Virus record (IMG/VR): IMGVR_UViG_3300012157_000001
Coordinates: 1 to 64,000 of that record
DNA length: 64,000 nt
Strand: one strand, 5' to 3'
Source of the DNA: a virus
Taxonomy: Duplodnaviria > Caudoviricetes
The translations under genes and the position numbers were made by a program. Positions 2,035-28,831 of the stretch are shown here, one piece after another. Numbering within the stretch: position 1 is the stretch's first letter; each line of letters begins with the position of its first letter. The notes under the pieces are model-generated. The model had not been told where the DNA came from and ran no database searches. It worked only from the letters and a program-made list of their open reading frames with translations.

Positions 2035-2805
2035 ATGCCGCACTACCCGACGTATCCCACTCAACCATTTACGGGGCAGCCTCCGTCGATGTGGTCGGAC
2101 GTCAACCGAGCGAGCGACACGCGGTACTCGTCGAGCACCGCTCCGTACTACCAGGCGAAGATCGATGCGGCGCACGGACGACACCTCGCCGGATCGGACG
2201 ACGAGGTGCAGGACGAGCAGGCGAACCAAGGGTATGCCCTGAACGAGCTCCGGCTGATGGCGGAGATGGACGACATCCAGGGCAACGGAGTCTTCGACAA
2301 CCCGCAGGTGACGCCGCCGAACATCCACGGCGACGCCGGTGTGTTTTCGGCGCGCTTCTCGCTTCCAGGTTATCTGGCGCGCGAGCGCATGTTCGCGCCG
2401 AGCGAGGTCCGCGACGTCACGACGGGTCGTCCGATCATTCCGGTGCCGAACAGCCCGGTGGCGTTCGACACGAACGAGCAGGTCGCATACATCGAGCGCG
2501 GGCTGCACCAGCCGTTCGGGCCCGTCGTCAGCGAGACGTCGCGCGGCGACATGCCCTACGAGTCGATCGTCAACGTCGTGCAGAACCCGGAGCGGATCAA
2601 GATTGGCGTGCCGTACCCGCCGCCTGCGCCTCAGTCGACGCATCCACCGCAGCCGACGGCAGGTTTCTGGCCGGCCACGGACGGAAAGAAGGCGGTCGTG
2701 CTGGTCGGCAGCGCCGCGGTCGCCGTGGGCGTGCTCTGGTTCGTTCTCAAGGGGCAGAAGAAGAAGCCGATGGCAGCGAACCGCAGGCGCGGGCGGAGGC
2801 ACTGA
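2035..2805 (+). CDS. C-terminally anchored membrane protein with basic tail
   Basis: ATG 2035 is 7 nt after TAGGTT; C-terminal TM then KKKPMAANRRRGRRH. Confidence 0.7.
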   Translation: MPHYPTYPTQPFTGQPPSMWSDVNRASDTRYSSSTAPYYQAKIDAAHGRHLAGSDDEVQDEQANQGYALNELRLMAEMDDIQGNGVFDNPQVTPPNIHGDAGVFSARFSLPGYLARERMFAPSEVRDVTTGRPIIPVPNSPVAFDTNEQVAYIERGLHQPFGPVVSETSRGDMPYESIVNVVQNPERIKIGVPYPPPAPQSTHPPQPTAGFWPATDGKKAVVLVGSAAVAVGVLWFVLKGQKKKPMAANRRRGRRH

Positions 2806-2808
2806 GCG

Positions 2809-3357
2809 ATGAACAACGGACTCGGTGAGTACTTCAGCGATCAGGCCGCGTTGCCGGCGGCGCCGCAGCACCCCGCAATGTCGGGCCCGACGGCGTTCGA
2901 GTCGCCGGTACCGCCCACGCGCATGACGCCGCTCATGCCCTCGTCGCGCCTGCCGCAGATCAGCGGCATGGGTGACACTGGCATGGGCATCTTCGGCCCG
3001 ACCACAGGCATGGGAGCGTTCAACATGGGCCCGGTGCCGGCGCCTCGGCAGCCGGGCGCGTTTCGCCGGGTCGCGAGCCGGGTCTCTCCGTTCGCTGGAG
3101 CGCTCGGCGACATGGGCGACGTGATCACCGACGCGAAGTCGGGGTTCGTCTCGGGCGCAGCCGCCGCGACGACGCTGACGGGAATCATCCTCGGGATGGG
3201 CCTCCGCTTCGGCGCGGGCTGGATCGTCGGCAAGGCGCTCGCTCCGTCGGCGAAGGACGAAAAGGCGTACACCTGGGGTGGCGCCATCGGGAGCGTGCTC
3301 TTCGGGTCGATCGGTCTCGGAATCGAGGCGCTCGTCGCACAGAACGCGAGGAAGTGA
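2809..3357 (+). CDS. Membrane protein with GLG/GMG motifs
   Basis: Starts MNNGLGEYF (same motif as the repeats in 16327..18567); 2-3 hydrophobic segments. Confidence 0.7.
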   Translation: MNNGLGEYFSDQAALPAAPQHPAMSGPTAFESPVPPTRMTPLMPSSRLPQISGMGDTGMGIFGPTTGMGAFNMGPVPAPRQPGAFRRVASRVSPFAGALGDMGDVITDAKSGFVSGAAAATTLTGIILGMGLRFGAGWIVGKALAPSAKDEKAYTWGGAIGSVLFGSIGLGIEALVAQNARK

Positions 3358-3370
3358 GAGCGGCGCCGGC

Positions 3371-6300
3371 ATGTCGATGAACTCGAACGTCGGTCCGCTC
3401 GGGCAGGGCGCCGTCGCGCAGTCGCAGATGGTTGCTGCCGCAGACGTGAGCGGATTGCCGACCGGATCACTCCTGTGGGCTGACCACGCGAACGAGTTTT
3501 GGGTCGTGGTTCCGGGCGGAGTAGCGCCGATCAGTCTGCTGGCCGAGCGTGCCGGGCGTCCACCGCCGGACGGTGAGCCGGCGATTGGGATGGCTCCGGA
3601 GTTTGCGCTCGTGCGAGAAGGCGACGGCCGCGTGCCGACGCACGGCACGGCGCAACGCCACGTCATTGCATGGGTCCAGAAGGCGCAGCGAGCGCATCCG
3701 AATCCGGCGCACCTGACGCTCGACGGGCAGTTTCGATCTGGGCTTGGACGCCAGGAAGCCTCGCACCTCGCGCTGGACGGCACGTTTTCGTTCGGTGTCG
3801 GCAGCAAGGACGACCGGCACGTGTCCAATGCCCGTCGCCGCGGCGCCCGCGCGGAGGAGCATGGCGCGGTCGTCGTCACGGCCGTGTTGTACCGAGGCAT
3901 CTGGGCGGTGCCGATACGCATCGAAGTTCGGTCTCAGCCAGGGCCCGCACTGGTGCAGTTCTCGTATGAGGAGAAGCGTGCTCGCGAGACGCACGTCCGG
4001 CTGATGAGCGCACTCGCTCAGCTAGGATGGCCACTCGACGCGACGGTCACGGTGCACGTCGACCAGGGCGCGGTTGCAGGCGCAGCAGGATACGCCGGCC
4101 TCGACCTGCCCATTGCGCTCGGTATGCTCGCGCTGAAGGGCCACGTGCCCCGCGAGTCACTCCGCGGAACCATGGCGGTTGGTGAGCTGGCGCTCGACGG
4201 AAGCCTGCGACCGATTCGCGGCGCGGCCGTCGCGGCGGTCGGCGCAAACGTGGACGACGAGACTGAGCTGCTGCTGGTGCCGGCGGAAAACGAGGTAGAG
4301 GCACGGTTCCTCGCCCAAAAACCTGTCATGTCGTTCGGCAATCTGTCGGAAGTCGTGTCGTACATGCAGACACGGGAGATTCCGCACGAGCCGCCCATCG
4401 AGTTCAGGCCGTGCAAGGCTGGCTATGAGGCGCACGACCCCGGGCTTCCGCCGGAAGCGGTGCAAGCGGCACAGCGTGGCCAGAATCTACTGCTAGTCGG
4501 GCCGCCTGGCGCCGGCAAGATGATGGCGGCGCGCTACATCCACTCGACGCTTGCGCGGCTCTCGGTGGCTGACGCAAAGGAGCTCACGGAGATCTACAGC
4601 GTCGCGGGGCTACTGCAGAACCACTACGCCTGTGCGCGTCCGTTCCGTGCGCCGCATCACACCGTGAGCGAAGCGGGTCTCATTGGCGGAGGTGAGGTGG
4701 TCAGGCCTGGAGAGGTAACGCTCGCGCACCGTGGCGTACTGATGCTGGACGAGGTCACGGAGTTCCGGAAGTCGACGCTATTCCCTCTATCAAGGGCACT
4801 TCAAGAGGGCCGAGTCGTATTCAGTCGTGGCGGGACGTCCATTGGGCTTCCGTCGAGCCCTCTTGTCGTGATCGCTACCGCGCTACCATGTCCGTGTGGC
4901 CACTTCGGAACGTCGCGCTGCCGATGCAGCACGCTGGCGGTGGCTAGCCACGAGGAACGCCTCCGCGAGGTGCAGTCGTTCTTCGCGATGCTGCGAGTCG
5001 ATCTGCAGCCCTTGACGGTGGCCGAGATGACGGGAGGCGCCATGCGTCGGAACGCCAAGGGCGACATCATTTGGCAGGACAACCTGCTGACGTGGAAGTC
5101 GGTGGGTGAAGATCGATCTGGGCAGCCCCGCGGCATCGAGATGATTGCCTCGGGCGAAGGGCGCGTGCGAGCCCAGGAGATGCTGGAAGAACGGCAGAGC
5201 CCACACTTCCGTCGCAGCCCACTCTCTCAGGAGATCGACTTTCTCGAAGTGGCGCTCGGCAACGGCTGGAGCACCGTGCCGCCGGAGGACATCGGTGCGC
5301 TCACGGATGCGACGATCGTGAGCCAGGACGGCTTCGTCGGCGACGACGGGAAATGGTACCCGCACCCGGAGGTCGAGGCACCGATCGTTTACGCGCACAT
5401 GAACTACGCCGTGGAAGATCCGGTCGAGATGTGGGCCGAGGGCAAGCCGGTGTTCTGGATGGCGGACGTTCTCACTGTGAACGACGAGCAGCGCACCCGA
5501 GCGAGAGAGGAGTTGTCGAGCGCCATGGGCGAAGCCTACGAGTCGAACGCACGCAAGAACGTCACGGCCGTGATCAACGCCTTCCTCGCTGGGCGGCGGC
5601 ACAGTGAAAAGACGTGCAGCACCGACGGTTGGCGGCTGTACTCGTACGCGCTGCTGATCGCGGCGAGGGTCGACGCTAAGGGAGAACCGGTAGACGTGGG
5701 CGCACCCGGCGCGCGCGTAGTGGTGCTCGACAAGCGTCTGTCGCCGAGTGCCACGACCAGCACCCAGATCAACGCCGTGCTCTCGGCCGTTTCCGGCGCC
5801 CAGGTCGTCGACGACATGCCGTATGCCGCTCGGTATCTGCCGAATGCGGATCAGAAACCGAATGCTCGGAAGGGCCAGTTCAAGGCCCCGGCTTCACTGA
5901 GTCCCGCGGAGAAGTTTTTCTTCGAGTGGGCTGGTGGCAGCTACACCGCTGGCGCGAGCACAGCGCAACGAAAACGCGAACGTATCGATCAAGCCAAGGC
6001 GATGGCCGCGGCGGAGGCAGAGGGGGAAGATCGCGGATGGAAGGTCGAGTGGGACTACGATCAGGAGCCGGACATCTCGTGGATGGACGACGAGCAGCGC
6101 GAGGAGCTGGAGCGCGGAGCCACGGAGATGCTCGTCGCGTTGCTTCGTGACGAAAACGGCAACGTGCTAGCAAGCCTAGGCGGCGTGCACGTGAGCGCAC
6201 GTGGAGGTCGCGACCCTTACGGACGGGTTGTGGAAGCGGAGCTCATCCAGGAGGCTCTGGAAGCCGAGCGCAGCTCCGGAACCGCGATGGCGCTCAACCG

Positions 6301-6553
6301 CGGAAAGCGACGGCAGGCGCGCAACCCGGTATTCCGGCACATGGATCTCGGCGAAATCGAACAGGTACTGGGCGCTCAAGAGATCGCTAGAGTCATGTCG
6401 TCGGATCGTCCGGAGGCGCACGCGAAGTCCCGCGCCGCCGGATGGTGGGACGCGAACGAGCCGGACTACCACGACGCCTACACGAATCTCGCGCGTATGC
6501 TCAAGGCAGGCGTGCTCGACGACCTGGTCGCAGAGGCACGCGGAGCCCGCTGA
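3371..6553 (+). CDS. Multi-module protein with a degenerate ComM/YifB (Mg-chelatase-like AAA+) domain plus 4-5 unrelated modules
   Basis: GLDLPIALG, GELALDGSLRPIRG, GPPGAGK, RPFRAPHH, PGEVTLAHRGVLMLDE, PCPCG are ComM/YifB signatures (~3860-5010); modules separated by Asn/basic linkers. Confidence 0.8.
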   Translation: MSMNSNVGPLGQGAVAQSQMVAAADVSGLPTGSLLWADHANEFWVVVPGGVAPISLLAERAGRPPPDGEPAIGMAPEFALVREGDGRVPTHGTAQRHVIAWVQKAQRAHPNPAHLTLDGQFRSGLGRQEASHLALDGTFSFGVGSKDDRHVSNARRRGARAEEHGAVVVTAVLYRGIWAVPIRIEVRSQPGPALVQFSYEEKRARETHVRLMSALAQLGWPLDATVTVHVDQGAVAGAAGYAGLDLPIALGMLALKGHVPRESLRGTMAVGELALDGSLRPIRGAAVAAVGANVDDETELLLVPAENEVEARFLAQKPVMSFGNLSEVVSYMQTREIPHEPPIEFRPCKAGYEAHDPGLPPEAVQAAQRGQNLLLVGPPGAGKMMAARYIHSTLARLSVADAKELTEIYSVAGLLQNHYACARPFRAPHHTVSEAGLIGGGEVVRPGEVTLAHRGVLMLDEVTEFRKSTLFPLSRALQEGRVVFSRGGTSIGLPSSPLVVIATALPCPCGHFGTSRCRCSTLAVASHEERLREVQSFFAMLRVDLQPLTVAEMTGGAMRRNAKGDIIWQDNLLTWKSVGEDRSGQPRGIEMIASGEGRVRAQEMLEERQSPHFRRSPLSQEIDFLEVALGNGWSTVPPEDIGALTDATIVSQDGFVGDDGKWYPHPEVEAPIVYAHMNYAVEDPVEMWAEGKPVFWMADVLTVNDEQRTRAREELSSAMGEAYESNARKNVTAVINAFLAGRRHSEKTCSTDGWRLYSYALLIAARVDAKGEPVDVGAPGARVVVLDKRLSPSATTSTQINAVLSAVSGAQVVDDMPYAARYLPNADQKPNARKGQFKAPASLSPAEKFFFEWAGGSYTAGASTAQRKRERIDQAKAMAAAEAEGEDRGWKVEWDYDQEPDISWMDDEQREELERGATEMLVALLRDENGNVLASLGGVHVSARGGRDPYGRVVEAELIQEALEAERSSGTAMALNRGKRRQARNPVFRHMDLGEIEQVLGAQEIARVMSSDRPEAHAKSRAAGWWDANEPDYHDAYTNLARMLKAGVLDDLVAEARGAR

Positions 6554-6568
6554 AAGGTGAAACGAACG

Positions 6569-7539: not shown

Positions 7540-8163
7540 ATGTTCTCCAATCTAGGTTCGCTCGGGTCCCGGCGTCGCCGATCGTCCACCAACGGCATCC
7601 TCAGCGGCTTCGGCGCGGTTCCGTCGCAGTGGACTATCGACTCGCGCGTCAAGACGCTGCAGAGCGCTCTGAACTCACAGATGAGCGCGGCGGGCTGCGG
7701 CACGACGCTCAAAGCGGACGGTCTGATCGGTCCGATGACGTGCGGCTCGCTTGCGTGGTCGAAGGCGACTGGATCGCCGCCGCCCTCGTACACCTCATAC
7801 GCGAGTGACATGGACGCCGGATGCCGGTCGATCACGGCGAAGGCTCCGGCGTGTCCAACCGCGGTAGTTCCGCAGCCGTTGCCCGTGGTGGTTCCGGAAC
7901 CGCCGCCGGCTATCGTTACGACGGGGCCGATCATCGTGCCCGGCCCGGTGTCACGCACGCCAGCCGTTCCGGTCGTCGTGCCCGCTGGGCCCGTGCCGCA
8001 GGTCGCGCCGATCATGCCGATGGCTCCAGCGGCATCGGCTGCGAGGAAAGGTACCGACATGAAGACGATCGCGATCATCGGCGGTGCCGTCGTCGCGGTC
8101 GGCCTTGGTGCGTTCCTGCTCCTCGGAAAGAAGAAGCCCAGCGCTCCAGCAAAGGCGGCCTGA
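7540..8163 (+). CDS. Membrane-anchored PG-binding-like protein (paralog of next gene)
   Basis: LQSALN...LKADGLIGPMTC; Pro stalk; TM + KKK. Confidence 0.7.
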   Translation: MFSNLGSLGSRRRRSSTNGILSGFGAVPSQWTIDSRVKTLQSALNSQMSAAGCGTTLKADGLIGPMTCGSLAWSKATGSPPPSYTSYASDMDAGCRSITAKAPACPTAVVPQPLPVVVPEPPPAIVTTGPIIVPGPVSRTPAVPVVVPAGPVPQVAPIMPMAPAASAARKGTDMKTIAIIGGAVVAVGLGAFLLLGKKKPSAPAKAA

Positions 8164-8166: not shown

Positions 8167-9786
8167 ATGACGTCACTCGGATCACTCGGGCCGCGTCTTC
8201 GACGTTCGAAGAGGAACGGAGTTTTCAGCGGACTCGGCGCAGCGCCGTCGCAGTGGACGGTCGATGCGCGCGTGAAGACGATGCAGGGTCAGCTCAATAC
8301 GGTGCTGGCCGGCGCAGGCTGCAGCACAAAGCTGACGACCGACGGCCTCATCGGGCCGGCGAGCTGCGGCGCGCTCGCGTGGGCGAAGGCACGCGGCGCG
8401 CCACCAGCGGCCTACGTCGCAGCGACGGCCGACATAGATGCAGGCTGCAAACCCTTCAAGCCTACCGCGCCGTCCTGCCCGGCGGCCGCTGCGGGGAGCT
8501 ATCCGTACGGGCTCCCGTTTCCCGTCGGAGTGAAGCACGATACTGCGTACAAGTGGCAGTACATGCTGAACAGCGAGCTCGGCGCGCGCGGGATGCCGAC
8601 CGTGCCGGAGGACGGAATCTTCACCACGGCGACGTGTAACGGGATGGGCGCGTTCGTACGCTCGTACAAGGCGGACCCGGACAACCCGACGCCTGACGAC
8701 ACGTTCCTGCAGCTCCTGAATCAATACCAGACCAACATCGTGTCCGCGTGCCAGGCGATGGCGATGCCGACCACGACGACGGCCGTCCCTGTGGTGGCGC
8801 CGGCTCCGGTTGCGCCGACCGTCAGCGGTGCGGATCTGATGAAGCAGCAGCAGACGATGCTGAATACTTGGCTCGTCAGCGTCGGCTACCAACCGATTCG
8901 CGTCACCGGAGCCTGGGACGGACCGACGTGCGGCGCCGGTCAATTCATGACCAAGACGCTACCGGACACGGACCCGACCAAGCTCGCGCTGGCAAAGGTG
9001 CTCGCGCAGATAAAGCCCCTGCTCGGCATGCCGTGCGGGGTCACCGTGACGCCGGTGGCGCCGATAAGGCCACCCGTTGCGCCGCCGACGAGCGCTCAGA
9101 TTCTGCAGATGCAGAAGCTCATCAACTCCGAGGTGCTGCGGCCCGGAGGCTATAAGCTGATCCCGGAAGACGGAAAGCTCGCGGCCGCTACCTGCGGCGC
9201 GGCGAGCGACACGGCATCTGCGGCGAGCATCGGTCGGATCAAGGTGTCGTCGACGCTCCAGACGTTGCTCAATCATCCGGGACTGCTTCCGGCGTGTCTT
9301 CCGATGAAGCCGTGGACGTTTCCGACGGTGGCCCCGGCCCCGGTGGCCGCAGGACCGTCACGTTCGCCAGCGCTTCCGCCGCTCAACCGAGACGGCGAGT
9401 GCGTCATCAACTTCGGACAGACGTACACCGAGATCGGCGTGCTGCAACAGCAGCTGAACGACGTCCTGGCTCAGAACGGATACAAGCCGATCCCGATAAC
9501 GAACAGGTGGGACGCCGCGACGTGCGGCGCGATGTTCGAGCTCGGCGGTAAGTTCTCGCCGCGGCCCTCGTCAGCCTGTCCGCACTACTACTCCGTGCCG
9601 CTTTCGTGCCCGACCGTCACGAAGCCAATGATCGCGCTGCCGCCTGCTCCGGTCGCCAAAAAGACGAACCTCGCGGTCCCGCTCGGTATCGCCGCGCTCG
9701 TCGGAGTCGCAGCCCTGGTCATCGCGAAAAAGAAGGGCCTGATTATGGCGGCGAAGGCCGCCGGACCCGCCGCTACAGCGGTGTAG
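8167..9786 (+). CDS. Membrane-anchored protein with about 5 Cys-containing PG-binding-like repeats
   Basis: Repeated Q..LN..L...GY.PI...G.....TCGA units; TM + KKK. Confidence 0.75.
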   Translation: MTSLGSLGPRLRRSKRNGVFSGLGAAPSQWTVDARVKTMQGQLNTVLAGAGCSTKLTTDGLIGPASCGALAWAKARGAPPAAYVAATADIDAGCKPFKPTAPSCPAAAAGSYPYGLPFPVGVKHDTAYKWQYMLNSELGARGMPTVPEDGIFTTATCNGMGAFVRSYKADPDNPTPDDTFLQLLNQYQTNIVSACQAMAMPTTTTAVPVVAPAPVAPTVSGADLMKQQQTMLNTWLVSVGYQPIRVTGAWDGPTCGAGQFMTKTLPDTDPTKLALAKVLAQIKPLLGMPCGVTVTPVAPIRPPVAPPTSAQILQMQKLINSEVLRPGGYKLIPEDGKLAAATCGAASDTASAASIGRIKVSSTLQTLLNHPGLLPACLPMKPWTFPTVAPAPVAAGPSRSPALPPLNRDGECVINFGQTYTEIGVLQQQLNDVLAQNGYKPIPITNRWDAATCGAMFELGGKFSPRPSSACPHYYSVPLSCPTVTKPMIALPPAPVAKKTNLAVPLGIAALVGVAALVIAKKKGLIMAAKAAGPAATAV

Positions 9787-9847
9787 TCACAGTCGTCCAA
9801 AAGCGACGGCGTGAATCACTTGGGGAAGCGTGTCGTCTAATGGGCAC

Positions 9848-10810
9848 ATGCCACGATCAAGGCGCCAGCTCGGAGTTGGCCAGCGCCACGGGCATCTGAC
9901 GATTGTTGCCCGAGGCAGACTGAACGGAACCTGGCGCGTGCGCTGCTATTGTGGTGTCGAGAAAGACGTACAATCTGGAACCCTCGGCACAGCGACATTT
10001 TCCTGCGGATGCCAACAGAACATTGGCAAGTATCGGCCAGGGGCGAGGTTCTTAGGTCTGACACTGGTGGCGCGCCTCGGTCGCCGGTGGCGCATGCTGT
10101 GCGAATGCGGAAAGGAGATCATCATCGAGGCGGCGAATGCTGGGCGCCAGCGCTCGTGCGGCTGCCACCTGCGGCGCGCAACCAGAGAGCGCCGCGCTCA
10201 GATAATTGGTAAACGATTCGGCCGCCTCGTGGTCCTTAACTTTCAAGGCACCGATGAACGCAGAGAGGCGCGCTGGCTATGCGTATGCGACTGCGGACAA
10301 CAGAAGTCATGGGTACCGATGGGTTCGTTGAAGAGCGGAAGAACGACCTCATGTGGATGTGCGCATGAAGATGCCTCAAGGCGTCGTATCTTGCCTGAGA
10401 ACCGTTCGCTCACCCCGGCGCAGCGACAACGCAGATATGCCCAGTCAGACCGCGGCATGGCCGCGAAACGCCGGGCTCAGTTCCGCTATGCGCGTCGGCG
10501 GTGGGCATCGATTCGCGGGGACCCCGGCGTGAGCTCTAGTCAATGGCTCTTTATTCAGTGGGCCTACGAGCAGCGCTGTGCGTACTGCGGGAGACGACGA
10601 GAACTAACGCAGGACCACGTTGTACCGCGCAGCAAAGGGGGCCGTCACTCCCCAGACAATATCGTCCCGGCCTGCTGGGACTGTAACTACAAAAAGCGCG
10701 CAAGAACGCTGGATGTGGCGCTTCAGATCCTGAAAGTTGCGGACGCCGACGGGTTCGTAGATAAATGGTCACACGTGGGAAACACCGCGAAAGAGTGCCA
10801 TGATGCGTAG
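9848..10810 (+). CDS. HNH endonuclease (homing-endonuclease-like) with Cys-rich N-terminal repeats
   Basis: CAYCG...DHVVPRSKGG...NIVPACWDCN; three G.RF..L....W.C.C.CG...SCGC repeats; lower GC than neighbours. Confidence 0.85.
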   Translation: MPRSRRQLGVGQRHGHLTIVARGRLNGTWRVRCYCGVEKDVQSGTLGTATFSCGCQQNIGKYRPGARFLGLTLVARLGRRWRMLCECGKEIIIEAANAGRQRSCGCHLRRATRERRAQIIGKRFGRLVVLNFQGTDERREARWLCVCDCGQQKSWVPMGSLKSGRTTSCGCAHEDASRRRILPENRSLTPAQRQRRYAQSDRGMAAKRRAQFRYARRRWASIRGDPGVSSSQWLFIQWAYEQRCAYCGRRRELTQDHVVPRSKGGRHSPDNIVPACWDCNYKKRARTLDVALQILKVADADGFVDKWSHVGNTAKECHDA

Positions 10811-11420: not shown

Positions 11421-11993
11421 ATGCGTAGGCATGGCCCAGCGCTCGGCATCCTCGGTGGCGCGAGCGCCATTGGCACTGCTGCGCTTGGCACCGACCAGTC
11501 CGACAACATCGACGCGATCACGGAGTACATGACGGCGGTCGCCACGCAGGTGAAGACGACGGCGGCACGGGCGAAGCAGGACGAGTACAAGGCGTGGATA
11601 GATACGGTCGGCTGGTACAACAAGAACTACGATCGGCCCACCTACGACCACGCGCGTAATCTGCGGAACGAGTTCAATGTCGCGAATGCGGTTACCCAAG
11701 CGGAGAAGCAGGCCGTCCAGCAAGTGCTCACCACGGGCCTCACCACTGAGGAGCAGCAAGGTGAAGGGCGCCGCGTAAGTTCCGAAGGCAAGTTCTCTGA
11801 GCAGGAGGCGCCGCCGGTGCCGATGCCGTCTTGGGCCAAGTGGGCGATTGCGGGAGCGGTCGGCGTCGGCATCCTCTACGCCCTCGGCAAGGTCACCACA
11901 TTGGCACAGATCTTCGCCGGCAAGCGCGACAGCAAGGCGGGGCCACCGGGCCATGCACCGAATCCGAAGCGGCGTCGGAGGGCGCGCCGATGA
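11421..11993 (+). CDS. Membrane-anchored protein sharing a domain with 6569..7537
   Basis: DNIDAI..Y...W...G.Y..N....A...R..FN.AN domain; TM; tail APNPKRRRRARR. Confidence 0.7.
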   Translation: MRRHGPALGILGGASAIGTAALGTDQSDNIDAITEYMTAVATQVKTTAARAKQDEYKAWIDTVGWYNKNYDRPTYDHARNLRNEFNVANAVTQAEKQAVQQVLTTGLTTEEQQGEGRRVSSEGKFSEQEAPPVPMPSWAKWAIAGAVGVGILYALGKVTTLAQIFAGKRDSKAGPPGHAPNPKRRRRARR

Positions 11994-12328
11994 AGTACTC
12001 GCGCTGGCGTGCGGACACCGGGGGCTACGACTACTTCGAGGCTGCGGACCGCTTTGGGCTCGGCGACGATCTGCCGGTCCCGAAGCTGTCTGGAGGCACG
12101 GACATCGGAGTGGCAAGCACGGACATCGGTCGAAACCCGATCTCTGGGACTAGACCGGCCGGCAGCGGCCCGACGCCGCAGGGATCGATCATGCCGCTGT
12201 CGCGCCAGGGCCTCTCCGGCGGCCTCTTCGAGGCGATGAACCTGCTGCCCTGGTGGGTGCCGGCGGGAGTCTTTGCGGTGGGCGTAGGCCTCGTGGCCTG
12301 GGAGCTCCGGAAGGGGCGTGCACGATGA
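11990..12328 (+). CDS. Small membrane protein
   Basis: ATGA overlap with previous stop; MKYSRW..GGYDYFE; C-terminal TM. Confidence 0.65.
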   Translation: MKYSRWRADTGGYDYFEAADRFGLGDDLPVPKLSGGTDIGVASTDIGRNPISGTRPAGSGPTPQGSIMPLSRQGLSGGLFEAMNLLPWWVPAGVFAVGVGLVAWELRKGRAR

Positions 12329-12909
12329 GGCGATACGTTGCCAACCGGAGCGACGCACGGTCGGCGGCCGTTTCGATCCGCGAGAAGTTCATCGACGCTC
12401 CGGCGACCACCGAAGAGACGATGCGCTGGAAGTGGCCGCGTGAGATGCAGGAGATCGGCCGTTGGCAGGCGAGCGACGGCGCGATCATGTATGCCTCGAA
12501 CAAGTGGCAGAAGAACCCGAACAACGTGATCGACTACAAGCACGTGGCGGAGGGACCGCAGCGGCTTTTGGCCGTGCCAGGGTTCATTCGTGAGTACCAC
12601 AACACGAGCCGAAAAATTCGTGTGTACGGCCCTATTGTGGAGTTGAACCGCCCGATGCCAGAAGCATTTGCGGTGCTGGCGCCGATCCTCGGCATTCAAG
12701 CGGAGCTCTTCGACGCCGGCACGAACGCCGCACCGGAGTCGTCGGGTGACAGCACGTATAACATCGAGATCGGCAACGCGATGCTCGGGGCTGCAAGGCA
12801 CACGGAGACGGGCCGCACGTTCCTGTTTGTCTACACCGAGAAAGAGGGCCCACTCTGCGTCATCACCGGTGACGAGCTCGACGTCGAGAAGGACGGAATC
12901 GTAGGCTGA
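12325..12909 (+). CDS. Soluble hypothetical protein with N-terminal basic/Asn tag
   Basis: ATGA overlap; MRRYVANR...; ends DGIVG. Confidence 0.7.
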   Translation: MRRYVANRSDARSAAVSIREKFIDAPATTEETMRWKWPREMQEIGRWQASDGAIMYASNKWQKNPNNVIDYKHVAEGPQRLLAVPGFIREYHNTSRKIRVYGPIVELNRPMPEAFAVLAPILGIQAELFDAGTNAAPESSGDSTYNIEIGNAMLGAARHTETGRTFLFVYTEKEGPLCVITGDELDVEKDGIVG

Positions 12910-16326: not shown

Positions 16327-18567
16327 ATGGCCAGAACAATCGGCAAAGCGTTCAAGATCGGAAAGAAGCAAGTACGGTCGTACGGCTATGCCTCGCCGAA
16401 TCGAGGCACGTACAAGCCGAACGCAGGCGTGACCGCCATCGCCGCCGTGAACGGCCGCGGCGCCCACGGGAAAAACCGCAGCAGGAGCGCGCGCTCCGCG
16501 ATGAATGGTCTCTCTCGGACGCAGCGGCTCGATCGTGCACGAAAGATCACGAGCTCAGGTCGCGCGGCGTTCGCGCGCCGCATGAGCGCGAGCATGCGCT
16601 CGAACGCCACGCCCGCGCAGATCGCGACGGCGCGGCAGAACATTCGCGCCGCCATCGCGGCTCGGAAGTCGCATCGACGCAACCGGAAGCACCGGCGCAA
16701 TCAGGCGCCGGTCAAAACATCGACTCCTGCCACGACGGCAAACCGCCGCGGCAAACGGCCCTCGAAACACAAGGCCAACTCTCGGAGGAAAAAGACAATG
16801 AGAACCCATCGTCGGAACTTCAGCGCGAAGCAGCGGGCAGCGGCCCTGCGCAATCTCGCCAAGGCACGCCGCGCGCGTCGTCATTCGCCGAATCGGCGTG
16901 GCGGACGGAAGGCCCGCCGCAACGGGCTCATGTCGAACCGGAAGCGTCGGCATCGCCGGAACAACGGCGTGGCCGCTGCGGCTCCGGCGCAGACGGCGAA
17001 CCGGAAGCGTCGGCATCGTCGGAACTTCAGCGCGAAGCAGCGGGCAGCTGCCCTGCGGAATCTTCGCAAGGCGCGCGCAGCGAAGCACCGTCCGAACCGG
17101 AAGCACCGCGCTCGCAAGAACGCGCGTCGTCGTACGCACCGCCGCAACGGGCAAATGGCGAACCGCCGTCATCGCAAGAACGCGCGTCGTCGTACGCACC
17201 GCCGTAACTTCACGGCGAAGCAGCGTGCCGCGGCTCTGCGCAATCTCCGCAAGGCGCGTGCAGCGAAGCACCGTCCGAACCGGAAGCACCGTCGCAACGC
17301 GCGTCGGCGTCCCCGCAAGAACGCGCGTCGCCACCGCCGTAACATCCGGATGGCGACGAACCGCCGTCACCGGAAGAACAGCCGTCGGCGTACGCACCGC
17401 CGCAACTTCACGGCGAAGCAGCGGGCAGCCGCCCTGCGCAATCTCCGCAAGGCGCGTGCAGCGAAGCACCGTCCGAACCGGAGGCGTCGCACGCGGAAGA
17501 ACGCGCGTCGTCGTACGCACCGTCGCAACGGGCAGATGGCGAACCGCCGTCACCGTCGCAACGCGCGTCGGCACGGCAAGGCGTTCCGGAAGAACCAGTT
17601 CATGGCGACGGCCATGGCGGTGATGAAGATCGGAACGGTCACGACCCTCGGCTTCCTCGGCCACAAGCTCGCGACCAAGCTCTTCACGGACAACGTCGTC
17701 GACAAGATCTTCGGATCTTCGGGTGTCGTCACGCCGCCCGCACCGGCGGCAACGAGCGGCCTCGAAGCACTGCAGCCGTACCGCACCATCATCGGTGGCG
17801 CGGCGATGGCGGCGCTCGGCATCTGGGCGACCAACCGGTTCGTGAAGGATGTGCGCGTCAAGATGTTCGTGACCACGGGCATCGCGACGTCGCTCATGCA
17901 CTCGGTCGCGGTGTCACTGCTCGCGAAGTTCACGCCGCAGTACACGGGCTACCTCTCGGGCCACGACGCCACGGCGGTTAACCTCGCCGCGATGTACGGG
18001 CTCGGCGGCGGCGCGAGCATCATGCCGGAGTACCACCCGATCGGTTTCGGTGAGTACTTCGCGCAGAACGGTCTGGGCGAATACTTCGCTCAGAACGGGC
18101 TCGGTGAGTACTTCGCGCAGAACGGTCTGGGCGAATACTTCGCTCAGAACGGGCTCGGTGCCTACACCGGCAACCCCGACCTGATGCAGGCGGCGGCCGG
18201 TTACGGTGCGCTCGACAATCCGAACTCGAACATCATCGATCCGGGCAGCGACCTCGATCGGCAGCTCTCGATCGCCGAGGCAGCCGCGGGCGTCGGTGCA
18301 GTGGCTCCTTACGAGGCGGCAGCCGGCTTCGGCCGCGTGCAGCCTTTCGAGGCGGCCGCTGGCTTCGGTCGGGTGCAGCCCTTCGAGGCGGCAGCCGGCT
18401 TCGGCTCCGTCGTGACGGTGCCGCCGACGGCGGACACCTGGATCCCCGGAACGAGTGACGGCGAGCTCTGGGCCGGCACGGTGGCCATCCAGCAGGGCCA
18501 GTCGGCGAACGAGCTGAACAGCGCCGGCATCCTGGAGACCGGTGGCAACCAGGGGGTGTTCGGCTGA
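16327..18567 (+). CDS. Arg-rich protamine-like core protein fused to membrane segments and GxG repeats
   Basis: SD GGAGG; ~420 aa of R/K/H/N-rich repeats (4x RRNF[ST]AKQRAAALRNL), about 3 hydrophobic segments, GEYFAQNGL x4, EAAAG repeats. Confidence 0.8.
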   Translation: MARTIGKAFKIGKKQVRSYGYASPNRGTYKPNAGVTAIAAVNGRGAHGKNRSRSARSAMNGLSRTQRLDRARKITSSGRAAFARRMSASMRSNATPAQIATARQNIRAAIAARKSHRRNRKHRRNQAPVKTSTPATTANRRGKRPSKHKANSRRKKTMRTHRRNFSAKQRAAALRNLAKARRARRHSPNRRGGRKARRNGLMSNRKRRHRRNNGVAAAAPAQTANRKRRHRRNFSAKQRAAALRNLRKARAAKHRPNRKHRARKNARRRTHRRNGQMANRRHRKNARRRTHRRNFTAKQRAAALRNLRKARAAKHRPNRKHRRNARRRPRKNARRHRRNIRMATNRRHRKNSRRRTHRRNFTAKQRAAALRNLRKARAAKHRPNRRRRTRKNARRRTHRRNGQMANRRHRRNARRHGKAFRKNQFMATAMAVMKIGTVTTLGFLGHKLATKLFTDNVVDKIFGSSGVVTPPAPAATSGLEALQPYRTIIGGAAMAALGIWATNRFVKDVRVKMFVTTGIATSLMHSVAVSLLAKFTPQYTGYLSGHDATAVNLAAMYGLGGGASIMPEYHPIGFGEYFAQNGLGEYFAQNGLGEYFAQNGLGEYFAQNGLGAYTGNPDLMQAAAGYGALDNPNSNIIDPGSDLDRQLSIAEAAAGVGAVAPYEAAAGFGRVQPFEAAAGFGRVQPFEAAAGFGSVVTVPPTADTWIPGTSDGELWAGTVAIQQGQSANELNSAGILETGGNQGVFG
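18049..18156 (+). repeat. Coding tandem repeat, 4 x 27 bp arranged as 2 x 54 bp
   Basis: GGTGAGTACTTCGCGCAGAACGGTCTG alternating with GGCGAATACTTCGCTCAGAACGGGCTC. Confidence 0.9.
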
Positions 18568-18718: not shown

Positions 18719-19471
18719 ATGGCCAAAGTGGTTTCAATTCGTGAGCGCGTGCACCAGCCCTTCTGGGATTCGCTCATCCGCACTGCCGGTCTCACCTCCG
18801 GCGCCCTCAACGACACGACGTCGCTGTTCACCAGCAACGGCTCGCGGTCCGAGGCCACCACGAACCTGATCAACGGCAGCACGCTGCCGTCCGACCAGTC
18901 GCACGTGGTGCTCGCGCTCCGCGTGTTCAGCTGGTACCGCAACCCGATTCTCCGGGCGGCGGGCGGCGTGGCTGGCGAGATCTCCGAAAACGGCGACTAC
19001 GGGACGCTGACCCCGTGGCTCATCGGTGGTCCCGGCGTCGGCCAGGCCCCGGCGAACATCGAGGACATCTACCGCCTGCACTGGCAGACGGAAGAGCAGC
19101 TTCACTGGAGCTTCGGCACCGGTCTGAAGAACTCGATCGACAACGTCCCCACGTGGTACTTCCCCGCGGGCGGCGGCATCAGCGGCGACATGGGCGCTGC
19201 GACGGACCTCATCCACTGGCAGAACAGCGGATGGGACGGGCACTCGGGCATCCTGCGCCTCGCGCGCGCGATCCTGATCCCGCCCCGTCAGAACATCCTC
19301 TGCCAGGCGAAGATCTTCGCTCTCCCCGACGCGGGGCAGGCGCAGACCTTCCTCACGTCGCAGGGCTCACGCAACATGCTGTCCCTCAAGGACAACTTGA
19401 ACGCGGTCGACGCGGCGCAGAAAGTGATTACGTTCACTTTCGACGGTTTGTTCTCAAGAGATGTGCAGTGA
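18719..19471 (+). CDS. Putative major capsid protein (possibly single jelly-roll)
   Basis: SD AAGGA; 250 aa, soluble, beta-like, strongly C/G-ending codons, directly after the core protein; fold not verified. Confidence 0.5.
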   Translation: MAKVVSIRERVHQPFWDSLIRTAGLTSGALNDTTSLFTSNGSRSEATTNLINGSTLPSDQSHVVLALRVFSWYRNPILRAAGGVAGEISENGDYGTLTPWLIGGPGVGQAPANIEDIYRLHWQTEEQLHWSFGTGLKNSIDNVPTWYFPAGGGISGDMGAATDLIHWQNSGWDGHSGILRLARAILIPPRQNILCQAKIFALPDAGQAQTFLTSQGSRNMLSLKDNLNAVDAAQKVITFTFDGLFSRDVQ

Positions 19472-24103: not shown

Positions 24104-24508
24104 ATGGCCTTCGCTCTTGCAGTAGGTGATCTTTGCAGCGCCGCGGCGGTCGCGTCGTTCGCGTCGTCCTCGGAGCCACCGGTGCTGGGTACCGTCGTCG
24201 CGATCGGGCCCACCGTCGTCGTGTGGCAGGACGGCCGTGAGCAGACATTCGTGGTGTCGGTCCCGGTGGACGTCGGTCTGTCGAAAGTCGCGATCGAGCT
24301 CGGCACGCAGTTCCAGAACGCAAGGATCCGTCCGAACGGCGTGATACCGAATCCAAACATCGACGGCCGCGCGGACGGCATCGTCGTGCTCGTCGTGAGG
24401 GTGACGAACGCCGTGGTCACCGATTTCCAGACGGCTATCGTTCGCTTCGGCAATGGCCTGTACGTCGCCGTGCCGACCCTCGCGATCGAAGTCGTTCCCG
24501 GCGCGTGA
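24104..24508 (+). CDS. 'VxWxDG' family protein, copy 2 (tandem duplicate)
   Basis: Long identical stretches with 23645..24058, including upstream AACCAAGGAAAAG. Confidence 0.75.
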   Translation: MAFALAVGDLCSAAAVASFASSSEPPVLGTVVAIGPTVVVWQDGREQTFVVSVPVDVGLSKVAIELGTQFQNARIRPNGVIPNPNIDGRADGIVVLVVRVTNAVVTDFQTAIVRFGNGLYVAVPTLAIEVVPGA

Positions 24509-24578
24509 TTCTCGGAGGCCCCTTAAGCATTGACCGCGCCTTCGGGCGCACAACGACCAACGGAGACGGAGAGAAGCA

Positions 24579-25127: not shown

Positions 25128-25139
25128 GACGAGGTCACC

Positions 25140-25574
25140 ATGCAAGCAGGAGACATTGTTTTTTTGGGGTCCGCAGTGGTCGGGCCAAGTGGATCCTCAG
25201 TGATCCACGAGCAGCCGCCCCAGCTCGGTATTATCGAGGCACTCGACGCCGGATCGCCGCCGACGAATGTCGTTGTCGTGTGGCAGGACAGTAGGAGAAC
25301 ACAGTACAACGCGGTTGGCAGCGGCGCGACGTCGTTGCTGTTTGTAGTCGGCACTATTCCGCCGGGTACGGTACCGATCGTCGGTTTCGTCGTGCAGCCG
25401 AAGTCGGTCTCGGGCATTCCGAATCCAGGCAGTCGTCTTCAGGGTCCAGTCATTCAACAGTATGGCCTGGAGGATCCGACAGGCGCTTCGGTTGGTCAGG
25501 CCATCGTTGTCGCGACACCGATCGGTTTTCTCGTGATCGATCCGGCCGACGCCACCGTGCTGGCAGCCGCCTGA
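25140..25574 (+). CDS. 'VxWxDG' family protein, copy 3
   Basis: AGDIV...QPPQLG...VVVVWQDS. Confidence 0.7.
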   Translation: MQAGDIVFLGSAVVGPSGSSVIHEQPPQLGIIEALDAGSPPTNVVVVWQDSRRTQYNAVGSGATSLLFVVGTIPPGTVPIVGFVVQPKSVSGIPNPGSRLQGPVIQQYGLEDPTGASVGQAIVVATPIGFLVIDPADATVLAAA

Positions 25575-25585
25575 AGGAGGAACTC

Positions 25586-26020
25586 ATGGCAGCCCCAATC
25601 GCAGCAGGCACGATAGTCACCACGAAATCGGCGCTCAGTGGCTTCGAGCTAGAGAACCGCCGCCCAATCATCGGCAGATGCGAGTCCGCGATAGCGGGGG
25701 CCCCGGGAGCTCCGCCGACAGATGTGGTAGTCGCGTGGGAAGATGGCACGCGAGAGACCTATGCAAACGCAAGAGGGCTCGCGTCGGTAGGCCTACCGAG
25801 CTCGGCATCTCTGCTCGGTACGGTCATGCAATTTCTGCCCACGCAACCTCCAATTCTTGAGGCGGGCACCCGTCTTCGCGGACCCGTCGTGGTGCACGCG
25901 GAGTACTTCGAGGCCAATGGGGATCCGCTCTCTGGTGGCAACGAAGTCGCGACGCTGAAAACTCGATTCGGATACGCCTCATTTCCGGTCGTCGGTCTCG
26001 TCGCCGTACCTGGCGCCTAA
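25586..26020 (+). CDS. 'VxWxDG' family protein, copy 4
   Basis: SD AAGGAGG; VVVAWEDG; ends VPGA like copies 1-2. Confidence 0.7.
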   Translation: MAAPIAAGTIVTTKSALSGFELENRRPIIGRCESAIAGAPGAPPTDVVVAWEDGTRETYANARGLASVGLPSSASLLGTVMQFLPTQPPILEAGTRLRGPVVVHAEYFEANGDPLSGGNEVATLKTRFGYASFPVVGLVAVPGA

Positions 26021-26067
26021 CCGAAAACTGGCGTGCCGGAGCCTAGAGAGGGTACTCTGGGCTGGCC

Positions 26068-26682
26068 TTGGCGGACTTGCTCGACACCCTGGGCCAAGTG
26101 GTCCTGAGCTTCCAATCTGCCCCGCTCGGGGTGCCAGGGCGCATTTGGGACGAGGTGAAGCCGTGGCTCGGTAACCTGGTGCGGCACGCGGCGCCGAAGT
26201 GGCTGCCGCGGCTCTCCTTCGGCTTCCCGTGCACCCTGCCGCGGCCCGATCGGCTCCCGTGCCCTCGACCGGCAATCGCTGCCTGTGACGCCTGTGGGCG
26301 TCCCTGCTGCCTCGACCACGCGCGGATCGACCAGTGGGGTGACGCCATCTGCTACGCCTGCTGCTGGGAGGCCCAGCAGAGGAAGCAGGCCGAGCGCGCT
26401 GCAGCGGCCGGTCATGTGCACGGGCAACCGGACCCGCGGCAGGTGCCGAACCAGCCACCGCCGATCTCCGAAAAGGATCTCGCGGCGGCGCGACGCACGC
26501 TTGGCGTAAAAAAGTCCGACGATTGGGACACCGTCGAGCGCTCGTACAAGCGGCTCCTCGCGAAGTGGCACCCAGATCGGCACCCCGGTGACGGCTACGC
26601 CGCCGCGGAGGAGAAGTTCAAGGCAGTGCGCAATGCGTTCGACTTGCTGGTGAAGGCTCGCGAACAGAAAGAAGCGGCGTGA
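26068..26682 (+). CDS. Zn-finger plus C-terminal DnaJ J-domain protein
   Basis: CxxC clusters; TLGV...YKRLLAKWHPDR...EEKFKAVRNAFDLL (HPD motif). Confidence 0.8.
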   Translation: MADLLDTLGQVVLSFQSAPLGVPGRIWDEVKPWLGNLVRHAAPKWLPRLSFGFPCTLPRPDRLPCPRPAIAACDACGRPCCLDHARIDQWGDAICYACCWEAQQRKQAERAAAAGHVHGQPDPRQVPNQPPPISEKDLAAARRTLGVKKSDDWDTVERSYKRLLAKWHPDRHPGDGYAAAEEKFKAVRNAFDLLVKAREQKEAA

Positions 26683-27362
26683 TGGCGCGAAGCAGGCGAA
26701 ACGAGAAAGTGGACTTCGGCGACGAGGATGCGGTGCTCGAAGAGATCGCGAATGCGCTCAAGGAAGATCCCGAGGACTGCTCAATCGAAGAGGACCGCGG
26801 ACTCACTGGCTTCGGTGAAGGCATCGTCTATCGCGTGAAGTGCGGGCGTATGGAGTACTGCGTCGTCGAAGACGACGATGCCGCTTACGCACTAGCGAAA
26901 GCCAGCGTCATTCAGGACTTGGAGCACGAGCCAGAAATCTTCAACAAGGACTTCATCGAGAGCCACATCGACAAGGACCGGCTGCGGCGTGACCTGCGCT
27001 CGGATGTACGAGACATGGCTGAGGAGGATCTCCGGCAGATGAGCGACCGAGAGTTCTGGCGCACGGCGGAGCGATACATCGACGTGCCAGAAGAGGACGA
27101 GGACGGTGACATGCCGGATACCGACGAGTACGTCGAGGACGTTGCCGAGAAGATGGTCGACGAGCGCCTCAAGGACCCGATGGAGTACCTGGAGGAAATC
27201 TACGGCGACGAAGCGGCGGCGCAGGCGATCAAGATCGCCGGCATCGACATCGACGCAGCTGCGGAGGACGCTGTCGACACCGACGGATGGCAGCACTTCC
27301 TCGCGCGCTACGACGGCAACAGCGAGGAGACCCGAAGCGAATTCGTCTTCTGGCGGGAGTAA
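26682..27362 (+). CDS. Highly acidic protein with N-terminal RSRRN tag
   Basis: D/E-rich throughout; starts MARSRRNE. Confidence 0.7.
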   Translation: MARSRRNEKVDFGDEDAVLEEIANALKEDPEDCSIEEDRGLTGFGEGIVYRVKCGRMEYCVVEDDDAAYALAKASVIQDLEHEPEIFNKDFIESHIDKDRLRRDLRSDVRDMAEEDLRQMSDREFWRTAERYIDVPEEDEDGDMPDTDEYVEDVAEKMVDERLKDPMEYLEEIYGDEAAAQAIKIAGIDIDAAAEDAVDTDGWQHFLARYDGNSEETRSEFVFWRE

Positions 27363-27369
27363 TTGATCC

Positions 27370-27966
27370 ATGAGCTACGACGTAGTGAACCCGACGTACT
27401 ATCAGACATTCCAACAAGGGACGCCGTTTCATCCCGGTGCGCCAGGCTGGACGCAGGCACCGTTTCCGACGTGGGGCGAGAATCCGAATCTTGCCGGTCG
27501 GCGACGGCTAGCGACCGACGGGCTCGGGAACGTCGTCGCGATCAGCGGCCTCGGCTCGATCGTCAAATCCAGTGACCCCGGCTTCACATGCCCGGCGGAT
27601 GCACCGCACCGGGTCGTCGACAGCCGCAGTGGCATCTCGTGTTACGGTGACTCCGAATGGGCAGTATTGAATCAGCAGGCTAAGCCACCGCCCGCGTTCG
27701 TACCCCCGGCGCCGTCGGCGTATCAGACGAGCCCGATCACGATTCCATCGGTGCCGCCGTGGCTGCGAGCACTCAGCACCATTTCCGCTGCTGCGTGCGC
27801 CTACCACGGGTACAAGCGCAACGAATCCGTGGGCTGGGCGTTCGGCTGGGCGTTCTTCGGCTCTGTCGCACCGTTCTTCGCGCTACCGGTGGCGCTCGCT
27901 CAGGGGTTCGGTAAACCGAAGAAGATGGTCTCGAACCGGCGTCAACGCCGCCGCACGCGGCGCTGA
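27370..27966 (+). CDS. Membrane protein with GLG motifs and basic tail
   Basis: DGLG, ISGLG, AYHGYKRN..GWA..W, tail SNRRQRRRTRR. Confidence 0.7.
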   Translation: MSYDVVNPTYYQTFQQGTPFHPGAPGWTQAPFPTWGENPNLAGRRRLATDGLGNVVAISGLGSIVKSSDPGFTCPADAPHRVVDSRSGISCYGDSEWAVLNQQAKPPPAFVPPAPSAYQTSPITIPSVPPWLRALSTISAAACAYHGYKRNESVGWAFGWAFFGSVAPFFALPVALAQGFGKPKKMVSNRRQRRRTRR

Positions 27967-27969
27967 GCG

Positions 27970-28104
27970 ATGTACGTTGCAACCCCGCTACCGAGGCGCC
28001 TGGGCGCCGTCCAGGAGCCGACGAGGGGCACGCCGGCATGGGTATCGCTGGTGATCCTCGGCGTGGCCGTAGCCGTTTTCGTGGGCACGCTGCGGCCTCG
28101 TTGA
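27970..28104 (+). CDS. 44-aa membrane peptide (absent from the ORF track)
   Basis: MYVATPLPRRLGAVQEPTRGTPAWVSLVILGVAVAVFVGTLRPR* fills the gap between genes. Confidence 0.55.
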   Translation: MYVATPLPRRLGAVQEPTRGTPAWVSLVILGVAVAVFVGTLRPR

Positions 28105-28156
28105 CAGCGGGCTGAAAAGTTGCGGGGTGCGCCGAGCGGGGCGTAGCCTGAGGGGC

Positions 28157-28831
28157 ATGGACTACTACCGGCCCGTCACCGCCCACGTCCCGCTCCGCCC
28201 GATGGGCGCCTCACCTGACGGCCTCGGCGCGTACTTCGCGACGACCTACACGCAAGGCATCAGTCCAAGTCCAGGTGGCGTGTTTCCGGTCGCGTACAAG
28301 CCGATCACGAGGCAGTCGACGCAGGGACTCGGGAACGGAGTCAATACGGAGCCAGGCACGAGCTCGATCGCGGTGTACCACCCGATCATTCGGCAGGCGG
28401 CGAACGGACTCGGCTGCGGTTGCTCGGCGGCCGGCGCTCCGGCTGCAGGTGTCGGTGAATTGCCGGCGTGGCTCTCCAGCACGTGGGTCAAGGTCGGTCT
28501 CGGTGCCGCAGTGCTCGGCGCGCTCTGGTTCGCGTTTGGTCGAAAGAAGAAGCAAACGGCGAACGCTCGTCGCCGGCATCGTAGGAACGCCAAGTGGTCA
28601 GGCAAGTACAAGCGCTCCCTTCCGGATTCGTCGTTTCTGTACGTTGGACCGGACGGTAAGCGACACTTCCCGTACAAGAATGCGGCGGGGCACATCGATC
28701 TGCCGCATCTTCGGAACGCGATTGCGCGGATCCCGCAGTCGAATCTGTCGGCTCTTCACCGTCATGCGCTTCAGCAAAAGGCGCAGAGGATCCTCGCTCA
28801 GCACGGCGGCTACGCGCGGGCAGCGGCGTAA
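28157..28831 (+). CDS. Membrane protein with a C-terminal small phage domain (DUF6582-like)
   Basis: Promoter TTGCGG-N18-TAGCCT 7 nt upstream; GLG motifs, TM, ANARRRHRRN, then LPDSSF...RHFPY...HLRNAIAR. Confidence 0.65.
   Translation: MDYYRPVTAHVPLRPMGASPDGLGAYFATTYTQGISPSPGGVFPVAYKPITRQSTQGLGNGVNTEPGTSSIAVYHPIIRQAANGLGCGCSAAGAPAAGVGELPAWLSSTWVKVGLGAAVLGALWFAFGRKKKQTANARRRHRRNAKWSGKYKRSLPDSSFLYVGPDGKRHFPYKNAAGHIDLPHLRNAIARIPQSNLSALHRHALQQKAQRILAQHGGYARAAA

Follow-up and report, generated by a model that had tools for sequence, protein, structure and literature searches.

What does an asparagine (Asn) do when it recurs next to runs of arginine and lysine in otherwise unrelated proteins of one virus? 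The question is raised by IMG/VR record IMGVR_UViG_3300012157_000001, a complete 179,401-bp record with direct terminal repeats from an uncultured bacterial virus of ~179 kb (G0, the genome under study), whose first 64 kb are the window analyzed here. The window has a G+C content of 65%, and its genes lie almost all on the + strand. The part from ~0.5 to 31 kb forms a module of ~20 proteins with one C-terminal membrane helix followed by a Lys/Arg (K/R) stop, most of them with G[LMFIV]G motifs upstream of the helix, and it also holds peptidoglycan-binding, DnaJ and M15 peptidase domains. A transglutaminase-fold enzyme comes first, followed by the anchored proteins and then by the proteins that we name after their start positions, 3371, 16327 and 18719 (Table 1). 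A sequence-only reading of this DNA proposed that Asn within a basic patch is one half of a "two-address code", in which G-x-G motifs stand before the membrane helix and the Asn/basic tag after it marks DNA-side cargo for packaging, possibly with cleavage at the Asn. The Asn/basic peptides that it quoted are each present in the open reading frame named for them, and in single-pass proteins the tag does lie after the membrane helix. We compared these proteins with those of the relatives G2 and G3 (56-62% identity), of the closest relative, G4 (93% in the 18719 protein), and of 108 loci around homologues of 18719 (L-numbered, e.g., L048 and L055).

Across this family, comparison of the proteins points to a real unit of the form [LMYV]-x-x-N-(R/K)n, carried by proteins with unrelated bodies. 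Among 408 unique post-helix tails, Asn occurs in 24 of the 27 with at least eight K/R residues, compared with ~4-11% of those with three to five. Where a tail has a second, distal basic run, Asn occupies the position immediately before that run (-1) in 12 of 38 cases, against a background of 3.3% (p 2e-9), and the carriers of these Asn-headed distal runs belong to at least 11 families with unrelated bodies. A hydrophobic residue (L, M, Y or V) stands three before N[RK][RK] in 119 of 158 core-protein contexts, 18 of 25 post-anchor tails and 56 of 128 contexts elsewhere, these contexts coming largely from related proteins and viruses, and the corresponding figure for control contexts, with S, A, T, P or G before [RK][RK], is 24.7%. 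Carriers of an Asn tail make up ~19 of ~506 unique anchored proteins (~4%), in 17 of 65 loci, and usually number one per ~20-kb locus; G0 has three. An upstream G[LMFIV]G motif is found in 11 of the 19 carriers and in 313 of the 487 other proteins, so that the two features are not linked (p 0.63). The two-address code is unsupported because the tag is rare and shows no link to an upstream GxG. A search of the literature found no description of the motif [LMYV]-x-x-N-(R/K)n or of this virus group.

Dozens of copies of the unit lie in the core protein 16327, in which a basic domain (residues 1-425, positions 16327-17601) is followed by three weak hydrophobic segments and then by GLGEYF repeats. 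Residues 1-440 contain 120 Arg, 42 Asn, 39 Lys (159 K+R) and 22 His with a single acidic residue; Asn accounts for 9.5% of them, compared with 2.4% genome-wide, and 16327 is the only clearly Asn-rich protein in G0. Orthologues were found at 76 loci, and most of the 45 that we analyzed are protamine-like in composition, with 30-45% K+R and 0.3-5% D+E. The basic domains of these 45 orthologues have diverged too far for alignment; the frequency of Asn in them is raised 1.54-fold immediately before [RK] runs and 2.06-fold immediately after, a bias seen in 33 and 38 of the 45, respectively. Enrichment at the borders of the runs is strongest for Asn and His, and Q, G, D and E are depleted there, so that drift from Lys/Arg codons does not explain the Asn. 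The residue that follows [RK][RK]N in the core proteins is G in 26%, A in 16% and P in 11% of cases, about half together. The sequence-only reading also held that about three hydrophobic segments separate the basic domain of 16327 from its GxG motifs, which holds for G0, with its three weak segments. On an odd number of passes the basic domain and the GLGEYF repeats would lie on opposite faces of the membrane; in the orthologues the number of segments, by a crude hydropathy scan, ranges from 2 to 5. Recent copying of 16327 repeats onto other genes at the DNA level was considered and rejected, the only matches being of 7-15 nt with E >= 0.01.

In the single-copy proteins, conservation of the Asn, on which the sequence-only reading staked its claim, proved uneven. 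It is kept at the 28157 junction, in 12325, in 2809 (three of four genomes), in 11421 (in G4), at the 3371 joints and in the closest-clade tails of 2035 and 27370, and it is missing from the orthologues of 26682 and from the distant orthologues of 2035 and 27370. The G4 orthologue of 2035 ends TMVSNRSHRGTSRRKR, and six more distant orthologues end in plain K/R. For 2809, the Asn is present in the tails of G4 (AQNMKK) and G3 (ALNHKGR), and G2 has ALHHR. The tail Asn of 11421 is kept in G0 and G4 (L048), and the orthologue at locus ...050 ends before the extension. Close relatives of 27370 end PAMAANRRRGRARR (G4), AAMAANKRRGRARRR (L047) and PAMAANRRARRR (L052), and in distant orthologues, which end at AQGFGKPKRG or similar, the whole extension is absent. 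Since the other orthologues end in plain K/R stops, the Asn extension is an addition, specific to this lineage, to an otherwise normal anchor. In the peptides a swap of tails is clear, the variants PMAANRRRGRR and MVSNR... being found on opposite proteins (2035 versus 27370) in G0 and G4 (L127-L128); at the DNA level the crosswise pair is identical at 37 of 49 positions, compared with 26 of 34 and 31 of 43 for the orthologous pairs, which favors an exchange only slightly. An Asn-arginine tail is also carried by a small membrane protein outside the window (genome positions 164061-164474, ending ...SGWSRNGRRAAVPRRRRRA), so that such tails occur beyond the 1-31 kb module.

A K/R cluster directly after the helix is present in all ~20 anchored proteins of the 1-31 kb module and equally in the orthologues from G2, G3, G4 and the loci, and the short stop of most of these proteins is explained by the positive-inside rule. 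The rule does not cover the whole tail, given the Asn heading distal runs (12 of 38) and the hydrophobic residue at -3 (18 of 25). Most of the examples listed in the window are ordinary anchor stops or lineage-specific add-ons, and the motif is rarer and weaker here than the sequence-only reading had it. The unit peptides of the G0 proteins include PMAANRRRGRRH, MVSNRRQRRRTRR and ARRRHRRN. A full fit to [LMYV]-x-x-N-(R/K)n in G0 is seen in MAAN-RRR and MVSN-RR; the hydrophobic residue at -3 is present with a loose or absent basic run after the Asn in VAQN-ARK, YESN-ARK, MRRN-AK, MALN-RGKRR and YVAN-RS; and QTAN-ARRR, HAPN-PKRRRR, QKPN-ARK and SRRN-EK lack a hydrophobic residue at -3. Of 34 distinct N-termini among the orthologues of the soluble protein 12325, most show M-x-RR-hydrophobic-x-x-N, and the six that are most distant have Asp instead of the Asn; searches of Pfam, PHROGs and the ESM Atlas with this protein gave nothing informative. 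Orthologues of 26682 start MAPKRKRARF (G2) and ATKAKRAPADF (G4), without Asn, and the Asn in the 26682 N-terminus is probably incidental. As a separate observation, the GGAGG ribosome-binding site of gene 2809 lies within the final Arg codons of 2035 (CGG AGG, at 2790-2812), and part of this arginine run is under double constraint because the same codons serve both.

Peptides of this kind were also reported at module boundaries, and comparative genomics confirmed this for the joints of both 3371 and 28157. The Asn/basic peptides of 3371 are SNARRR, RRNAK, SNARKN, PNARK and LNRGKRRQARNP. Its ComM-like ATPase module occupies residues 154-555, between N153|A and N561|A, and so fits exactly from ...HVSN|ARRR... 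to ...AMRRN|AKGDIIW; further joints lie at N726|A, N831|A, N976 and N985. The 3371 orthologue of G4 has nothing inserted at the corresponding joint (...HMKKN|AAAKGEVIW), and the ATPase is encoded there by a gene of its own, which starts MARRK. The block of 3371 that follows ...ESN|ARKNVTAV has a free-standing twin at 60165, which starts MRKNIASV. In 28157, TANARRRHRRNAK directly follows the membrane helix, with Asn codons at 28562 and 28586, and the junction x-N-(six basic)-N-[AG]-[KR]-W-S keeps its Asn in five of five orthologues. This junction is present in all orthologues with the C-terminal domain (G4/L048, L055 and L105), down to one whose 18719 protein is 58% identical; a truncated L052 orthologue retains the double Asn as well, and the G4 orthologue has an extra module between two N-basic-N-A units. 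Taken on these comparisons, the joints show domain borders and a recurrent linker, as opposed to cleavage. The ComM-like domain was the only match when Pfam and PHROGs were searched with the tagged proteins. In addition, the soluble C-terminal domain of 28157 (28586-28831, AKWSGKYKRSLPDSSFLYV...DLPHLRNAIARIPQSNL) shows 40-61% identity in relatives, and it matched no Pfam family at E <= 0.01.

We give about an even chance to an explanation in which the unit is a portable single copy of the building block of a DNA-condensing domain, used as an arm on anchored and cargo proteins. Tandem units, each a hydrophobic residue, two small or polar residues, an Asn and an Arg/Lys run, would build the DNA-condensing domain of 16327; single copies would have been added in this lineage after the K/R membrane stop of 2035, 27370 and 11421, and others placed between the modules of the cargo proteins 28157 and 3371. 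Most likely, these units would act as genome-binding arms that fasten their carriers, and with them the membrane, to the packaged genome. Pairs such as N-G and P-N classically form turns, and the Asn, which often stands in one of them, may be the uncharged residue, turn or cap, at which each arginine run starts or ends. The comparisons show the motif itself, its conservation, its portability and its place at module joints; from these we infer DNA binding, the membrane side of the tails and the structural role of the Asn. A DNA-side role, as the sequence-only reading had proposed, is plausible because the unit shares the repeat grammar of 16327, sits on unrelated proteins and marks joints, and to that extent the idea of tagged DNA-side cargo is partly supported, as a rare add-on and not as a general label. 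Should the unit prove to tie membrane proteins and cargo to the genome, it would show how a DNA of 110-180 kb is organized against a lipid layer, in a large, apparently tailless, membrane-lined phage of a kind for which we know of no cultured model, and the motif would offer a sequence handle for predicting DNA-adjacent proteins in these uncultured viruses.

Several points weigh against this explanation. The fixed hydrophobic residue at -3 exceeds what a turn former needs and looks like part of a recognition site, and copies in G0 often lack it (QTAN, HAPN, HRPN). The family-wide p-values overstate independence, because the contexts come from related viruses. Counts confined to G0 are at chance level outside 16327; the enrichment over homologues called for by the sequence-only reading is strong across relatives and is not seen within the genome itself. 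Without 16327, the G0 proteome shows no excess of Asn beside [KR] runs; for the 1-31 kb module, again without 16327, 16 Asn in or near basic patches were observed against 11.5 expected (p 0.1), and 11 against 10 when 3371 was also left out. Asn-bracketed basic units number 2 in G0 with 1.3 expected, and are at chance level in G0, G2 and G3; [MLIVFY]xxN[RK][RK] occurs 4 times in G0 with 4.5 expected; and the NAR tripeptide is marginal, at 1.1-1.6-fold, with 1.6-fold over expectation in G0 (p 0.025). If the membrane were acquired by PRD1-like pinching-off, tails kept on the cytoplasmic side by the positive-inside rule would come to lie towards the capsid, away from the DNA. How many times 16327 crosses the membrane is uncertain, and a 440-residue polycation without a signal peptide would hardly be exported.

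Among the other explanations, the one that survives best, which we nevertheless consider unlikely, is maturation cleavage, in which a viral protease would cut hydrophobic(P4)-x-x-Asn(P1), breaking the core protein up into short arginine peptides, shortening the tails and setting free the cargo modules of 3371 and 28157. The fixed spacing from hydrophobic residue to Asn resembles a protease subsite pattern, and the residues after [RK][RK]N are small (G, A, P, S). The units stand exactly at joints, with the ComM-like module running from N|A to N|A and the free gene of G4 beginning M-ARRK where G0 has N-ARRR; the free twin at 60165 likewise begins at a joint of 3371, and the module of the G4 28157 orthologue is inserted between two N-basic-N-A units. 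An intact Cys-His-Asp enzyme always heads the module, and this enzyme, 552-1088, is the only peptidase-like candidate "reader" that was found beside it. It belongs to the transglutaminase-like family PF01841 (E 2.2e-5, 25.2 bits against a cut-off of 23), and its GDCDD, SHVF and DPVA motifs are kept in G2, G3, G4, L095, L120 and L122, down to 37% identity. We know of no transglutaminase-fold enzyme that cuts after Asn, which counts against cleavage, as does the failure to find legumain, caspase, adenain, Ulp1 or trypsin-like families in the 179-kb viral genome: PF00770 and PF02902 (clan CE) gave no match at E <= 1 in the complete genome, PF01650 and PF00656 (C13 and C14) gave none at E <= 1 in the viral genome, host enzymes lying outside this search, and no Trypsin_2-like gene was found in the 179 kb. 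Moreover, joints that coincide with linkers show domain boundaries, and distant orthologues manage without the tails. The fuller scheme, in which the transglutaminase-fold enzyme runs a hitherto unknown system of maturation at Asn, the resulting oligo-arginine peptides condense the 179-kb genome and cargo enzymes such as the ComM-like ATPase are freed from polyproteins within a membrane-lined tailless particle, would be a little less probable again. If the unit were a cleavage site, it would mean that bacterial viruses have a maturation scheme like that of adenoviruses, with a protease specificity that is new.

It is improbable that the pattern is due to chance, with the tails being ordinary positive-inside stops, the Asn incidental and 16327 a low-complexity repeat that happens to contain Asn. 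Such an account fits the chance-level statistics within the genome and the loss of the Asn in the 26682 orthologues and in the distant orthologues of 2035 and 27370; duplication of the 16327 repeats inflates the Asn count of that protein, and part of the 2035 Arg run doubles as the 2809 ribosome-binding site. The family-wide signals (p 2e-9; a hydrophobic residue at -3 in 72-75% versus 25%) are hard to reach by chance, however; the Asn is kept at the 28157 and 12325 sites while their surroundings have diverged, and 38 of 45 unalignable 16327 basic domains enrich Asn after basic runs. Chance and the positive-inside rule explain several of the listed sites, but they leave the family-wide grammar unexplained. 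Least probable, and by our estimate very much so, is that the Asn-polyarginine binds acidic head groups or fixes orientation or insertion without binding DNA: arginine clusters do determine topology (the positive-inside rule), in the tails the membrane helix is separated from the unit by 3-15 residues, and the carriers, read by eye, lack N-terminal signal peptides, but dozens of units occur in a 440-residue domain far from any helix, others are at the joints of 3371, a soluble protein, and 96% of the anchored proteins suffice with 2-5 K/R residues.

As a genome-binding arm, a unit of this kind would have its closest functional analogues in other viruses, in arginine-rich tails that bind the genome and in protamine-like core proteins. 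The hepatitis B core protein has a C-terminal domain with SPRRR repeats, and the capsid proteins of small RNA viruses have arginine-rich N-terminal arms; these share with our unit short arginine runs, a small polar head residue, often a proline, and a position at the protein end, which in those viruses faces the genome. Unlike the hepatitis B core, the head residue here is Asn and not a phosphorylatable Ser, a hydrophobic residue stands at -3, the unit is carried by proteins that a large DNA phage anchors in a membrane, and the binding is only presumed. Adenovirus has the core proteins pVII and pX/Mu, and many of its virion precursors bear short consensus tags for adenain, with a hydrophobic residue four before the cut. 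The protamine-like core protein of our virus is similar, and the G[LMF]G tags of the virus resemble the adenain (M/I/L)-x-G-x|G, whereas the genome is without the adenain/Ulp1 family, the candidate enzyme has a transglutaminase fold and the core protein is membrane-anchored; Asn at P1 is not known for adenain, to our knowledge. As in the positive-inside stops described by von Heijne, the anchored proteins and their orthologues have 2-5 K/R residues directly after the helix, but the Asn-polyarginine is a second, distal cluster, on ~4% of them, with its own grammar.

Among cultured viruses, a match was seen only to the membrane-containing Salisaeta phage SSIP-1, in which a transglutaminase-like gp34, annotated as structural, likewise stands ahead of a row of proteins with C-terminal anchors, some of which also have a structural annotation. 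The match of gp34 to 552-1088 is weak (26% identity, E 5e-4), and the other module proteins have no SSIP-1 match. Unlike our tails, those of SSIP-1 are short (SSK, KKGQ) and without Asn-polyarginine, and SSIP-1 has no large protamine-like protein. Viral 3C-like proteases, which have a chymotrypsin fold, recognize P1 Gln with a hydrophobic P4, and the order of hydrophobic residue, two others, carboxamide and then a small residue is similar here, with Asn in place of Gln, by analogy only. In the asparagine peptide lyases, the self-cleaving coat proteins of nodaviruses, tetraviruses and reoviruses, the Asn at the scissile bond has a folded catalytic environment; the N-A and N-P pairs of our proteins lie in basic linkers and tails. 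In sortase-like signals (LPXTG, PEP-CTERM, GlyGly-CTERM) the signature motif precedes the helix and the basic cluster, and the protein starts with a signal peptide; the arrangement here is different, since our Asn motif comes after the helix and no signal-peptide-like start is seen by eye. We place the unit outside the adenain, legumain and sortase-signal systems because their defining features were looked for and not found.

Table 1. Positions of the proteins discussed, in window coordinates
Position	Strand	Feature	Termini, Asn codon or basis
552..1088	+	Predicted enzyme with transglutaminase fold and Cys-His-Asp triad, first in the membrane-protein row	PF01841
2035..2805	+	C-terminally anchored protein	Ends KKKPMAANRRRGRRH / KGQKKKPMAANRRRGRRH; Asn codon 2779; tail fits M-x-x-N-RRR
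2809..3357	+	Membrane protein with five G[LMFIV]G motifs	Ends ALVAQNARK; Asn codon 3343
3371..6553	+	Multi-module soluble "cargo" protein with ComM/Mg-chelatase-like ATPase	Pfam
11421..11993	+	Anchored protein with a long tail	Ends APNPKRRRRARR / GHAPNPKRRRRARR; Asn codon 11961
12325..12909	+	Conserved soluble protein, fold unassigned	Starts MRRYVANR
16327..18567	+	Membrane-anchored protamine-like core protein, 746 residues	Composition
18719..19471	+	Most conserved family protein; single jelly roll	Identity to relatives 31-95%
26682..27362	+	Acidic soluble protein	Starts MARSRRN
27370..27966	+	Anchored protein	Ends KKMVSNRRQRRRTRR / GKPKKMVSNRRQRRRTRR; Asn codon 27934; tail fits M-x-x-N-RR
28157..28831	+	GLG motifs, membrane helix, linker N-ARRRHRR-N-A and soluble C-terminal domain	

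Elsewhere in the window, the 18719 protein is likely to be a component of the capsid shell. Its structure model has a predicted local distance difference test score (pLDDT) of 70, and the best structural matches, at Z 5-6, are to TNF-like folds, PRD1 P5 and the SPV1 capsid protein, which at this level are generic jelly rolls. The model of the 19638 protein reached a pLDDT of 53, and a phage database search with this protein gave no match. Terminase_6N and HK97-type capsid families had no detectable match in the genome, an absence that is not proof.

The structural module also contains genes with features of their own. An HNH endonuclease gene with repeated Cys-rich units lies inside it at 9830-10810; near 177.6 kb the genome has a further segment, 54% identical to this gene, for which G2 and G3 have no match and the match in G4 is only 31% identical. 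Small beta-rich proteins occur as tandem paralogue pairs at 23645-24058/24104-24508 (84% identical) and 25140-25574/25586-26020 (~34%), the first of which is a single copy in G4. Two adjacent anchored proteins, 7540-8163 and 8167-9786, start MxSLGSLG..RRRSxxNG and are 56% identical over their N-terminal 100 residues, and the second has repeated peptidoglycan-binding-like units. In addition, a DnaJ-domain protein with a Cys-rich N-terminal half, at 26068-26682, is kept in 51 related loci.

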